Source of the DNA: Coraliomargarita sp. | GTDB lineage: Bacteria; Verrucomicrobiota; Verrucomicrobiia; Opitutales; Coraliomargaritaceae | Assembly (NCBI GenBank): GCA_965216325.1 | Contig: OZ244160.1 | Coordinates: 1,056,001 to 1,120,000 of the forward strand | DNA length: 64,000 nucleotides | Direction: 5' to 3' | The notes under the pieces: model-generated | What the model saw: the letters and a program-made list of their open reading frames with translations, nothing else | What the model was told of the DNA's origin: nothing | Databases searched by the model: none | Position numbers and translations under genes: made by a program | Shown here: in pieces, positions 17,172 through 55,237 of the stretch | How the letters are laid out: the number at the start of each line of letters is the position of its first letter | Position numbering within the stretch: the first letter of the stretch is position 1

Positions 17172-17249
17172 GTAGGGGCTTCGCTTGCGAAGCCCGCCGA
17201 TAGAAAAGCGATTCAACAGGAGCGCGGGCTCCGCAAGCAGAGCTCCTAC
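17172..17249. repeat. Inverted pair of GTAG-type REP hairpins
   Basis: GTAGGGGCTTCGCTTGCGAAGCCCGC ... GCGGGCTCCGCAAGCAGAGCTCCTAC. Confidence 0.8.
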
Positions 17250-52512: not shown

Positions 52513-52626
52513 AGCGCTTAGGTTTCGAAGATGACACAGAATCTCAATTGAATTCGGTGGAATTATTTTGGCGCTCCCATTCGGAAAAATCTGGAGATAC
52601 CTCAGTTAGATCGCTTGATTGAGTGC

Positions 52627-53307
52627 ATGCATTACAAACAGGACGGTAAGATACTCACCTACGCCATCGTGCTCACCGCCCTCATTACTGCATCGATTCT
52701 CGGGCTTTCGATGTATTTTTCCAGCTCGACGGTCCACGACTTGTTGACAGAAAACCATGCGCTGAACAAAGCGATTCGGAATCTAACCGATGAACAGCAG
52801 ATCGGCTATGCGACACTGCAATCCAGAACTCGCAACGAATTTGGAGAGCCGGAGAGTGTGGTGCGTTTTGTGCAGACGGCCCCGGGCGATCCGCGTGAGA
52901 TCGTTTCGGAGCAGCTTTTCATGGTTGAAGGAGACATCGTCCATTTCGACGCCTTAATCGTCAAATTCAGCGACCGCTACGTCAAAGAAGGCAAAGGGCG
53001 CGCACTTTACCTGTGGCGGCGCGTCTACAGTGAACACACCCCACCCTCCAGTGGTGAAGCGATCGAGCTCCCAGGCAGCGCTCCAGAGCGTTACTACGAG
53101 ATTACGAAGACCTTGAAAATCAAGGATCGAGACATTTTCTGGGAGGCGATCTGGGACCTCGCCAATGACCCGCAGCAACTCAGCCAGTATGGGATTACCG
53201 CAGTCTACGGTGAGGCGATCTATTTCAAATTGGCTGCGGACAAGCTCTATCGCTTTAAAGTAAGCCCCCAGGGACAGCTTTACGCCGAGGTCGTCGACGC
53301 TCGTTGA
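52627..53307 (+). CDS. Hypothetical membrane-anchored protein
   Basis: N-terminal TM, short coiled coil, globular domain; no family recognised. Confidence 0.75.
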
Positions 53308-53379
53308 AAGACGCCCCTTCTTCTTCGTAGATGACATGGGCGTTTATCAGGAGCACGGAAGTGCTATGATGATAAACTT

Positions 53380-54468
53380 ATGCAAAACCCCACATCATCT
53401 ACACGGACAACTAAGAACGCACTGGGCACAGTAATCAAGCTTGGCATTGACGTGCATGCGAGCACCTACGTGGTGGTCATGAAGATCGATAGCAGCGCCC
53501 CTTCACGCGCGAAGCGCATGAAGCCTGATATCTTCCTTCGATGGATTAAGCAGCTGAGCACTCAGTGCGAGCAGTTGCAAAGTTGCTACGAGGCCGGTCC
53601 TTTTGGTTACAGCCTGCACCGCAAGCTCAAGGCGATGGGCGTGAACAACCACGTAATCCGCCCGATCAACTGGGACACTCATGGTAAGAAGGTAAAGACC
53701 GACGCGCGTGATGCGTTGCAAATGGTCTTGAGTCTGGACGGCTATCTGCGGGGCAATGACCGCAGCTTCAGTGTCGTGCGTGTGCCCAGCGAGCAAGAAG
53801 AGCGTCACCGCAGCCTAACCCGGCAGCGTGAAAGCTTCGTCAAAGAACGTGGCCGTGCGGCCAAGCGTGGTAAGAGTCTGGGACTGTATTACGATCAACC
53901 CTTACCCAGCGGCTGGTGGAAGCCGCGCAAATGGATGCAGCTACTCGAACAGCTCGACGATTTTTTGATCAGCCTGCTGGAGCCACTGCGGTTAAACTGC
54001 CTGCACTTTAGCGAGCTAATCAGCAACATCGAAGAACGTATCGAAGCGCTCGAGCCGGAACGGGTGCTGCCTAAAGGCATGGGGGTGGTCCTCTATGAAC
54101 AGATCGAACGTGAGGTCTGCAACTGGAAGCGATTCAACAACCGCAAGGCGGTCAGTTCCTTTACCGGACTGTGCCCAAGCGAAGACACTAGTGCAAATCG
54201 GCGTTTCCAGGGCTCGATCAACAAACACGGCAGTCCCCGCCTGCGGCATATGCTACAAGAGTGCGCCTGGTTATTGATCCGGTGGAATCCCGGCTACAGT
54301 GGGGTGCGTAAATGGCAGGCCAAGCTCAGCGACGAGACCACCAGTAAGGCGACCCGCAAGAAAATTGCCGTGGCCATCGCCCGGCAGTTCGCCGTGGACT
54401 GGTGGCGCATACGCACTGGCCAATGCAGTCTCGAAGACTTCGGACTGATAAGCAGACAAAACCCATAA
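53380..54468 (+). CDS. IS110 family DEDD transposase/recombinase
   Basis: LGIDVH (D), CYEAG (E), KTDARDA (DD), C-terminal GLCPSEDTS and INKHGSPRLR. Confidence 0.95.
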   Translation: MQNPTSSTRTTKNALGTVIKLGIDVHASTYVVVMKIDSSAPSRAKRMKPDIFLRWIKQLSTQCEQLQSCYEAGPFGYSLHRKLKAMGVNNHVIRPINWDTHGKKVKTDARDALQMVLSLDGYLRGNDRSFSVVRVPSEQEERHRSLTRQRESFVKERGRAAKRGKSLGLYYDQPLPSGWWKPRKWMQLLEQLDDFLISLLEPLRLNCLHFSELISNIEERIEALEPERVLPKGMGVVLYEQIEREVCNWKRFNNRKAVSSFTGLCPSEDTSANRRFQGSINKHGSPRLRHMLQECAWLLIRWNPGYSGVRKWQAKLSDETTSKATRKKIAVAIARQFAVDWWRIRTGQCSLEDFGLISRQNP

Positions 54469-54790
54469 GTCCGAACCAACGCTAAAGGCCTTCACCCTCT
54501 GATTTTAACGTTCTTTTGCAGTTTTCCTTTGTGCGGAGTGAGTCTGACCAAGCCCCTGTTGCCAACACAACGATTTTGTAGAATAGGCCACTTCGCCACC
54601 AAGCTTTTGAATGACCCAATGGATAGGTCATAGTGTGCTCTTCTGAGAAACACTCAGAAACACGGATAGCAGGTTATCCCGGATCATCGAAACTCCGAGG
54701 CCATGCGCGGTGGACGCTCAAAGACGATTGCAATCAAAACAAACCACTTATCTTATGTAAAAACACTCACACGCTTCTACACTCTTGACA
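54469..54790 (+). ncRNA. Putative bridge/seek RNA of the IS110 element (exact ends unknown)
   Basis: Stem-internal loop-hairpin at 54533-54596 whose loop strands match the IS flanks; further hairpins downstream. Confidence 0.65.
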
Positions 54791-54802
54791 GAAACGAACA
54801 TA

Positions 54803-54908
54803 GCAGGGGCTTTGCTTGCCTTCGAGCATGAGCTCAGGCCGAATGGCGAAGCCCGCATCAGATCAGTCGCATTCACATCGGTTCGGGCGTCGCAAGCAAC
54901 GCCCCTAC
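54803..54908. repeat. REP pair of the 17172 family, abutting the IS right end
   Basis: GCAGGGGCTTTGCTTGC...GCGAAGCCCGC and CGGGCGTCGCAAGCAACGCCCCTAC. Confidence 0.7.
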
Positions 54909-54976
54909 AATTTCCAGTAATAGCGATTCCAACAAAGCGAGTTGCCATTCCAGAACTTCCTGTTTGTTTACGCCGC

Positions 54977-55237
54977 ATGGGCAAAATCATCTTTAAACGT
55001 TCCGGCGTCGAGTTCGAGTGGACTGGCGACGATGAAAGCATTCTTGAACTCGCCGAGGCGAATGACCTCGATCTCGATTTCGGCTGCCGAATGGGCAACT
55101 GCACGGCCTGCCAGCACGAGGTGGTCTCTGGTGAAGTTGAATATCCCAATGGCCATACAGGGGAACCCGATGAGGGCTATCAGCTGCTTTGCTGCTGCAC
55201 GCCGATGGGCGATGACGATGTTATCATCAACGCCTAA
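54977..55237 (+). CDS. 2Fe-2S ferredoxin
   Basis: [10 protein letters not shown]...LLCC plant-type motif; start at ATG 54977. Confidence 0.92.

Follow-up and report, generated by a model that had tools for sequence, protein, structure and literature searches.

The RNA guides of IS110-family insertion sequences (ISs) were described in 2024, as bridge RNAs for IS110 and as seekRNAs for IS1111 and IS110 (PMC11208160, PMC11208158, PMC11187229). According to the predictions of Durrant et al., 93% of IS1111 elements carry such an RNA in their right end, and its donor bases are often placed in a multiloop (PMC11208160). Siddiquee et al. report that the 5′-to-3′ order in IS1111 seekRNAs is top-strand match first, bottom-strand match second (PMC11187229). 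The subterminal inverted repeats of IS1111 are usually 11-13 bp long and perfect or nearly so, and the ends extend past the repeats by 7 bp at the left and by 3 bp at the right (PMC11187229). Handshake bases have been defined for IS621, and two papers from 2026 treat excision and half-match recombination. Here we analyse a 64,000-nt stretch of the genome of Coraliomargarita sp. (Verrucomicrobiota; assembly GCA_965216325.1, contig OZ244160.1, positions 1,056,001 to 1,120,000), called the window below. It carries a 1476-bp element which is, in our judgement, very probably an active or recently active IS110-family IS with the IS1111-type layout and a bridge/seek-type guide RNA in its 3′ part. This reading is carried by nine copies with a common target, by the protein family, by a conserved RNA structure and by the covariation of the guides with the flanks.

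The guide-RNA mechanism has been known since 2024, and the element is a divergent member of the family, no new kind of system; the finding opens no new question. To the RNA-guided IS110-family recombinases it adds a very divergent, well-resolved lineage, drawn from Verrucomicrobiota as well as soil and aquatic metagenomes and with at least 27 naturally reprogrammed target specificities. The lineage is also a clear example of the IS1111-type strand order with a readable donor strand. Natural series of this kind help to define the guide length, the core and the handshake rules in the 3′-RNA branch, on which there is far less structural work than on IS621. Our literature search returned no paper on IS110 elements of Verrucomicrobiota; the supplements of PMC11208160 (Table 5, Extended Data Fig. 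10) and PMC11187229 (Fig. 2) may already place this clade or ISEc45.

Layout, transposase and described relatives

All coordinates are positions in the window and all features lie on its + strand, unless stated otherwise. The element spans 53331-54806 when the core dinucleotide AG is counted once, at the right end; by the IS1111 convention, with the core counted at the left, the same element is 53329-54804. The transposase gene is preceded by 49 nt and followed by 338 nt, and the relatives are laid out likewise. The left end (53331-53379) holds the right-donor half ATGACATGG (53331-53339) and a weak sequence ATGGGCGTT (53336-53344) that resembles a left inverted repeat. In the host genome (3.06 Mb, one contig) the element is present in nine copies, eight identical and one at 99.93% over 1473 bp. 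All nine sit at the 5′ foot of a hairpin that resembles a repetitive extragenic palindrome (REP), and BLAST of the host genome found no solo copies of the RNA region.

The only long open reading frame (ORF) of the region (53380-54468) encodes a transposase of 362 aa with the DEDD RuvC-like and Tnp domains of the IS110 family, assigned by Pfam and the catalytic residues. Pfam scores are 29.2 bits for DEDD_Tnp_IS110 (PF01548; cut-off 29) and 52.9 bits for Transposase_20 (PF02371; cut-off 21.3). The residues D24, E71, D108, D111 and S271 (in GLCPSEDTS) are invariant in 6/6 aligned relatives, and the catalytic residues align with GIDV, CMEA, KTDAVDA and GLTP....S of ISCro4. ISCro4 is also the only match in a PDB sequence search (E ≤ 0.01; E = 3.4e-4), from which IS621 is absent.

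The element shares with the described IS1111 seekRNA elements (ISEc11, ISKpn4, ISPst6 and ISPa11; PMC11187229) a long non-coding region downstream of the transposase gene, a pair of guide strands of which the 5′ one is complementary to the top strand and the 3′ one to the bottom strand, subterminal repeats with 7- and 3-bp extensions (at the level of the family), the lack of target duplication and a junction promoter made of the joined ends, which is a prediction here. Like ISPa11, it uses REP sequences as its target. It is unlike IS1111 in several respects. The transposase has 362 aa, and 362-381 aa within the clade, against the 330-350 aa stated for IS1111; the serine motif is GLCPSEDTSA, thus SA (SD, SN or SG in relatives) in place of S/T-G; the subterminal repeat of the window copy is weak; and the conserved RNA has about 197 nt with a second conserved region, whereas the purified seekRNAs measure 82-96 nt.

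With IS621 and ISCro4 (PMC11208160, PMC11208158, PDB 9t56) the locus has in common one predicted RNA with a target loop and a second, donor region, the reading of each side on opposite strands, a dinucleotide core common to donor and target, proposed guide bases which reach past the core onto the other partner (the handshake) and an active site of DEDD plus serine. However, the RNA is placed at the 3′ end rather than at the 5′ end, the strand order is reversed, the core is AG rather than CT, the donor bases are predicted in a multiloop, and the protein is distant.

The best named protein matches are ISEc45 (27% identity over 370 aa, 97 bits) and ISSso6 (29% over 309 aa, 92 bits), IS110-like elements of Escherichia/Shigella plasmids with transposases of 377 and 375 aa. 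In ISEc45 the layout is also the same, with about 60 nt upstream and about 250-330 nt downstream of the gene, judged from where the IS66 flanks resume. Their sequences are very distant, every relative in the plasmid collection being below 32% identity, and the likeness is one of protein and, for ISEc45, of layout. IS4321, the IS1111-group reference, reaches 23% identity (56 bits), and BLASTP against ISEc21 gave no match. The RNA position, the strand order and the terminal extensions fit the IS1111 layout, while the transposase appears closer to ISEc45/ISSso6 than to IS4321, a placement based on BLASTP scores. ISPpu9 and ISPpu10 of Pseudomonas putida, in a different phylum and likened here by description only, are also IS110-family elements that insert into repetitive extragenic palindromes, and ISPpu9 has a small-RNA gene downstream of its transposase gene (PMC12288879, bioRxiv 10.64898/2026.03.19.712850).

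Relatives were collected from two sources. A scan of species genomes gave 20 loci at 47-72% identity, all from Verrucomicrobiota except one Candidatus Sulfotelmatobacter and one 'uncultured bacterium'. A metagenome scan gave at least 510 stretches encoding a relative, of which the best 80 were kept. After removal of loci whose match fell short of the C-terminus (11/80 metagenome and 2/20 genome loci), 87 loci and the window remained, and 61 of these have the motif G(G/T)ATAG 120-330 nt past the match. In the remaining 27 either the sequence stops too early or, as in one subgroup, an extra structured segment of about 270 nt precedes the motif. The MAFFT alignment A2 contains 60 sequences, one duplicate having been removed. 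The extra segment characterizes a sister group (~50% protein identity), in which about 270 conserved nt with a long hairpin (..TTGGGCCTTGGCTTGCGGAG..CCGCAATCCAAGGGCG..) lie between the transposase stop and GGATAG; its metagenome loci are L059, L060, L062-L064, L071, L093, L094, L096, L101, L108, L110-L114 and L119-L122.

Predicted guide RNA and target recognition

The predicted non-coding RNA (54527-54723, ~197 nt) is closed by CUUUG (54527-54531) and CAAAG (54719-54723), and its putative ends are placed at this helix. It consists of a target-binding arm (54533-54596), where an outer stem opens into a large internal loop below an apical hairpin (54557-54572), and of a donor region (54597-54713), in which a long-range helix CACC.. 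(54597)/..GGUG (54713) surrounds a multiloop with small hairpins. The arm had already been proposed in the sequence-only reading, with the outer stem formed by GCGGAGTGAGTCTG (54533-54546) and TAGGCCACTTCGC (54584-54596) and the apical stem by TGTTG/CAACG; RNAfold of 54525-54605 gives the same fold, and each string of that reading stands at the coordinates given for it.

The structure is conserved by compensatory change. RNAalifold predicts 23 pairs, 19 of them with a compensatory change. A hand-written structure of 35 pairs in six helices was scored on the 60 sequences: paired cells make up 85%, a share that falls to 38-50% on sliding the partners by 1-3 columns, 27/35 pairs change on both sides, and 0/500 shuffles reach the score. 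In the donor region the long-range helix (columns 136-142/255-261) is 95% paired and all 7 pairs change on both sides, and the inner hairpin (columns 179-185/201-208) is 96% paired with 5/6 such pairs; folds of the donor region were made for 21 relatives. The helices of the first arm score lower, 75% and 57% paired, because indels shift the register. Folded singly, all 52 distinct arms show the long closing stem, the large internal loop and the apical hairpin, with weak loop-crossing pairs in many. One pair alternates between G:U and U:G (28 and 26 sequences) and therefore fits transcription of the + strand only.

The internal loop of the arm would hold the two target guides. The right-target guide AAGCCC + CU (54550-54557) is complementary to the top strand AG-GGGCTT (54805-54812), and the following base, G54558, has its partner in C54804 once the element is integrated. 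The strand AAGCCCCTG (54550-54558) is in this way the exact reverse complement of the right flank CAGGGGCTT (54804-54812), as had been noticed from the sequence. A 9-mer complement is present in 148/100000 mononucleotide shuffles of the 335-nt non-coding region. The left-target guide UUUUGU + AG (54574-54581) has the sense of the top strand CTTCGT-AG and would pair with the bottom strand. The left target half (53323-53330) consists of CTTCGT (53323-53328) and the core AG (53329-53330). Between the loop strand TTTTGTAG (54574-54581) and this flank CTTCGTAG there are two differences, RNA T against flank C, and both are U:G wobbles because the RNA would pair with the bottom strand. The right target half is made by the first bases, GGGCTTT, of a long-form REP-like palindrome (GGGCTTTGCTTGCC...GGCGAAGCCCGC; 54807-54856).

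Both guides covary with the flanks, and together with the nine copies this upholds the earlier proposal of an IS110/IS1111-type element with a 3′ RNA whose loop strands match both flanks: the covariation is seen in about 50 relatives. Across 53 loci the longest complementary match of the 5′ loop strand to the right flank has a mean of 8.7 for cognate and 5.8 for non-cognate flanks, and with one representative for each of the 27 distinct flank 9-mers 0/20000 permutations reach the observed sum. The guide and flank are AAGCCCCUG with CAGGGGCTT in the window, ACACCCCUG with CAGGGGTGT in L043 (73% protein identity), UGACUCCUG with CAGGAGTCA in L028, CGCGGCCUG with CAGGCCGCG in L080 and UAUGCACUG with CAGTGCATA in L088. 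Matches are poor (longest 4-6) in L081, L034, L037, L046, L098 and L072, which may be off-target or decayed insertions. For the 3′ loop strand and the left flank, 48 loci agree beyond the core at 3.0/6 positions strictly and at 3.7/6 with wobble; 0/20000 permutations reach this, with or without wobble, and much of the signal lies in the two core-adjacent bases. A mutual-information scan without priors gives the same picture: the right-flank positions 2, 5, 6 and 8 lie on an antiparallel diagonal in the 5′ strand, and the left-flank positions -1 and -2 have their best columns in the 3′ strand.

Donor side, ends and alternative readings

The sequence-only reading could not assign a donor-binding loop. 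For the right end a donor strand can now be assigned; for the left end the assignment is tentative. The strand AUAGC-AG-G (54666-54673) repeats, in the same sense, the right end ATAGC (54800-54804), the core AG (54805-54806) and the first target base G (54807); with the preceding GG it reads GGAUAGC-AG-G (54664-54673) and forms the 3′ single strand of the multiloop. In 50/54 relatives the four bases past GGATAG equal the four past ..CATAG at the right junction. All four loci that differ from CAGG covary (GAGC twice, GAGG once, CAGT once), and in the four misses the RNA has CAGG and the flank CAGC (2), CAGT (1) or AAGG (1). We suggest from this comparison that GGAUAGC-AG-G would act as a donor guide with a one-base handshake.

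For the left end, GUCAU (54627-54631) is a candidate, being the complement of ATGAC (53331-53335). The third base of this end (G in 27, A in 24 and C in 1 loci) is Watson-Crick to the aligned RNA column in 51/52 loci, and GUCAU may tentatively be regarded as recognising this end. A guide complementary to the left end together with the core (..GUCAU-CU) is absent, and the TCATC in the last hairpin of the window copy is, by inspection, not conserved in the relatives. We also note that in relatives of the Opitutales type the RNA (54610-54631 in the window) holds AUGAC(C), the same bases with which the left end starts, and these are able to pair with GUCAU; they may mask the guide as an internal mimic or make a plain structural hairpin.

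An alternative to this two-part guide is that the first arm (54533-54596) is the sole guide, that the protein reads the ends through the subterminal repeats, and that structure or coincidence explains the matches in the second region, a reading which leaves no guide role for GGAUAGCAG against the right end. IS1111 transposases indeed co-purified mainly with RNAs of 82-96 nt that contain two target matches alone (PMC11187229), the subterminal repeats are conserved in the family, the left-end candidate pairs inside the RNA, and the right end and GGAUAG are nearly invariant and leave little covariation to test. However, the region 54597-54723 is as conserved in sequence and structure as the first arm, with compensatory helices at 95-96% pairing, GGATAG and its four following bases track the right junction in the 50/54 loci with all four variants included, and the donor-binding nucleotides lie in a multiloop in many IS1111 orthologues (PMC11208160). 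We therefore consider a sole guide in the first arm unlikely.

The second alternative concerns the ends of the element. The sequence-only reading took TAG as the sequence shared at both junctions and CTTCGTAG joined to CAGGGGCTT as the target. On these boundaries the last position of the element is 54803 (..ACATAG), (T)AG is the core, and insertion is into GTAG joined to CAGGGGCTT, a CAG-bearing REP variant; the circle junction would be ..ACATAG followed by ATGACATG and the empty site GTAGCAGGGGCTT. Over its 9 nt CAGGGGCTT is perfectly complementary to the 5′ loop strand, one IS-free site has the sequence tcGTAGCAGGGGCTTTGCTTGCC and the form GTAGCAGGGGCTT is found once, and an occupancy of 9/10 such sites would be expected if only the CAG variant were targeted.

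The flanks and the REP family point elsewhere. Judged against the IS-free REP copies, only AG is common to both junctions, and the target is not duplicated. Among the nine copies the left flank ends in YGTAG in 8/9 and in CGAAG in 1/9; the relatives read ..AAG/ATGAC on the left (the slash marks the junction) and ..CATAG on the right, and all 48 with a scorable left flank end in AG. The core is thus AG instead of TAG. All right flanks of the nine copies start with CAGGGGCTT and go on as GGGCTT..AAGCCC palindromes, so that the occupied REP feet read ..CATAGCAG followed by GGGCTT in 9/9. The REP-like family is present at many other places in the genome, and there the IS-free feet (slash before the hairpin) are GTAG/GGGCTT in 29 cases, GTA/GGGCTT in 5, nCAG/GGGCTT in 3, and TATAG/GGGCTT and GTAGCAG/GGGCTT in 1 each; 55 further matches of the same regular expression are mostly the opposite palindrome strand or unrelated sequence. 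One copy occupies the last unit of a 292-bp tandem array whose sister units read GTTGTAGGG(G)CTTT, without CAG. In the relatives CAG (GAG in three loci) follows ..CATAG ahead of unrelated downstream targets. CAG (54804-54806) is most likely part of the element, because the IS-free REPs mostly read GTAG/GGGCTT, the sister array units lack CAG and CAG is kept before differing targets. Nor is CAG a marker of a REP subfamily, since the nine occupied REPs share their stem variants (TTTGCTTGCGAA, TTCGCTTGCGGA, TTTGCTCGCGAA and the long form) with IS-free REPs that have no CAG.

Further observations favour the same boundary. In the 3 loci with G instead of C before the right-hand AG the donor strand also has G and the target strand is unchanged, in keeping with a base of the element and its donor. 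One relative carries at least 8 insertions in its genome, where the 13-mer GAAGCAGGGGTCA expected from the earlier boundary occurs 0 times and YGAAGGGGTCA 5 times. The earlier boundary would also give a right extension of 0 bp instead of the 3 bp of the family, and the junction promoter would be lost. We thus consider an end at 54803 very unlikely. With the end at 54806, the empty target is most likely cGT-AG-GGGCTTT, that is CTTCGT-AG-GGGCTTT at the window locus.

The same boundary agrees with the inverted repeats of the relatives. The left ends all begin with A-T-(G/A)-A-C-A-T-G-G-G or a near variant. The repeats are significant in 18/46 relatives (≤5/500 shuffles), with for example 16-17 of 23 positions matched; they begin after AGATGAC (7 nt, core included) and end before AGC (3 nt) if CAG is in the element, and this 7/3-bp geometry is not found under the earlier boundary. 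The earlier statement that the element lacks subterminal inverted repeats hence holds, weakly, for the window copy and fails for the family.

The outward -35-like TTGACA (54785-54790), recorded in the sequence-only reading, lies in the region resembling the right inverted repeat (AACGAACAT, 54793-54801), and TTGAC(N) is found at the right end of 46/46 relatives with both ends. When the ends are joined with CAG, TTGAC(N) is followed after 16-18 nt by T(A/G)ACAT from the left end in 38/46; joined without CAG, the best -10 is CATGGG in 32/46. Scans of the linear element gave 0 promoter-like sites and 3 terminator-like sites, all within the gene and with no excess over shuffles.

The remaining possibility, chance complementarity in a 3′ region that is an untranslated spacer or a degenerate REP, is hardly credible: folding energies are no better than those of shuffles and no Rfam family matches, but the 9-mer is rare in shuffles, the guides covary with 27 different targets and 27/35 pairs are compensatory.

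Several observations weigh against the reading of the locus as an RNA-guided IS, or reduce its force. NCBIfam NF033542, 'IS110 family RNA-guided transposase', scores 137.8 bits, just under its cut-off of 140, over residues 21-344 of 362. Production of the RNA is itself a prediction from comparison of sequences; a search of sequencing runs for this stretch gave no RNA run. The 81-nt arm folds with z = -1.84 (7/200 shuffles as good) and the whole 335-nt non-coding region with z = +0.67 (73/100 as good); the structural support comes from the comparison with relatives, not from thermodynamics. Rfam gave only three chance-level snoRNA matches on the non-coding region (E > 3). The relatives are not independent, so the permutation counts overstate the significance, yet there are many distinct specificities. 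On the donor side, the covariation of the left end is a single split between two clades, and GUCAU pairs within the RNA with AUGAC (54610-54614) and is not complementary to the core. The inverted repeat of the window copy (ATGGGCGTT against ATGTTCGTT) is scored as well by 310/2000 shuffles. The 5 matches to YGAAGGGGTCA are about what chance gives for an 11-mer (~4 by our estimate), with 0 for the reversed control. Contigs of four sequencing runs showed no joint across the element or its ends and no omitted letters, and no circle or copy-specific empty site was seen in them. In two congeners with orthologous loci (flanking genes at 82% and 75% identity) the intergenic region differs and has no REP, so the boundary is not settled by them.

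Two further results come from the same assemblies. A short contig that resembles an empty site was rejected, as it equals sister units of the tandem array. The depth of the element contig is about 8-9x that of the flanks, a depth that is not a copy number.

Proposed mechanism and sites in the host genome

We suggest the following scheme for the RNA-guided IS. The transposase would bind the RNA transcribed from the 3′ part of the element. The 5′ loop strand (AAGCCC-CU) is proposed to pair with the top strand of the core and the right target half (AG-GGGCTT), and the 3′ loop strand (UUUUGU-AG) with the bottom strand of the left target half and the core (ttYGT-AG). The multiloop strand GGAUAGC-AG-G would read the right end, the core and one target base, and GUCAU, the weaker candidate, may recognise the left end.

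The element would be excised as a circle, in which the right end contributes TTGACA and the left end TGACAT to a junction promoter. The circle junction is predicted to keep CAG between ..ACATAG and ATGACATG. Integration would then proceed at the AG before REP hairpins (cGT-AG-GGGCTTT) with no target duplication, and the empty sites are predicted to read ..GTAGGGGCTT... The element accounts for nine insertions beside REP hairpins, and about 29 more sites, of the form GTAG/GGGCTT, are predicted.

A predicted unoccupied target lies in the window itself, where positions 17172-17197 form an IS-free REP-like palindrome, caGTAG followed by GGGCTTCGCTTGCGAAGCCCgc.

The sole IS-free REP with GTAG-CAG-GGGCTT is found outside the window, on the minus strand of the genome near 1266364 (L013), and could be a natural variant or a 3-bp excision scar. 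The right end holds two AG dinucleotides 3 bp apart (..CAT-AG-C-AG), and GT-AG-C-AG-GGGCTT could be the scar of an excision in the alternative TAG..TAG register, an origin that we regard as improbable. If it were true, a natural bridge-type recombinase could slip between neighbouring cores, and the match of GGAUAGCAGG, continuous over 8 nt of the integrated right junction, would serve both excision and integration.

The tandem array mentioned above also lies outside the window (L006, 2990-4510; genome ~1553950-1555470). It has 292-bp units in at least 5.2 copies at 96% identity, with one long-form REP per unit. Among the relatives, L046 has a second right-end fragment ..CCCATAGCAG about 40 nt past the right end of its complete element (..CCCATAGCAG-GGTC-CCATAGCAG-GGGTCAT..), an arrangement which suggests insertion beside the remnant of an older copy. 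In the window the element lies between a 230-aa ORF without Pfam match and an ORF with a 2Fe-2S ferredoxin domain (Fer2, 49.8 bits) (52615-53307 and 54785-55237), and the outward TTGACA faces the ferredoxin gene.

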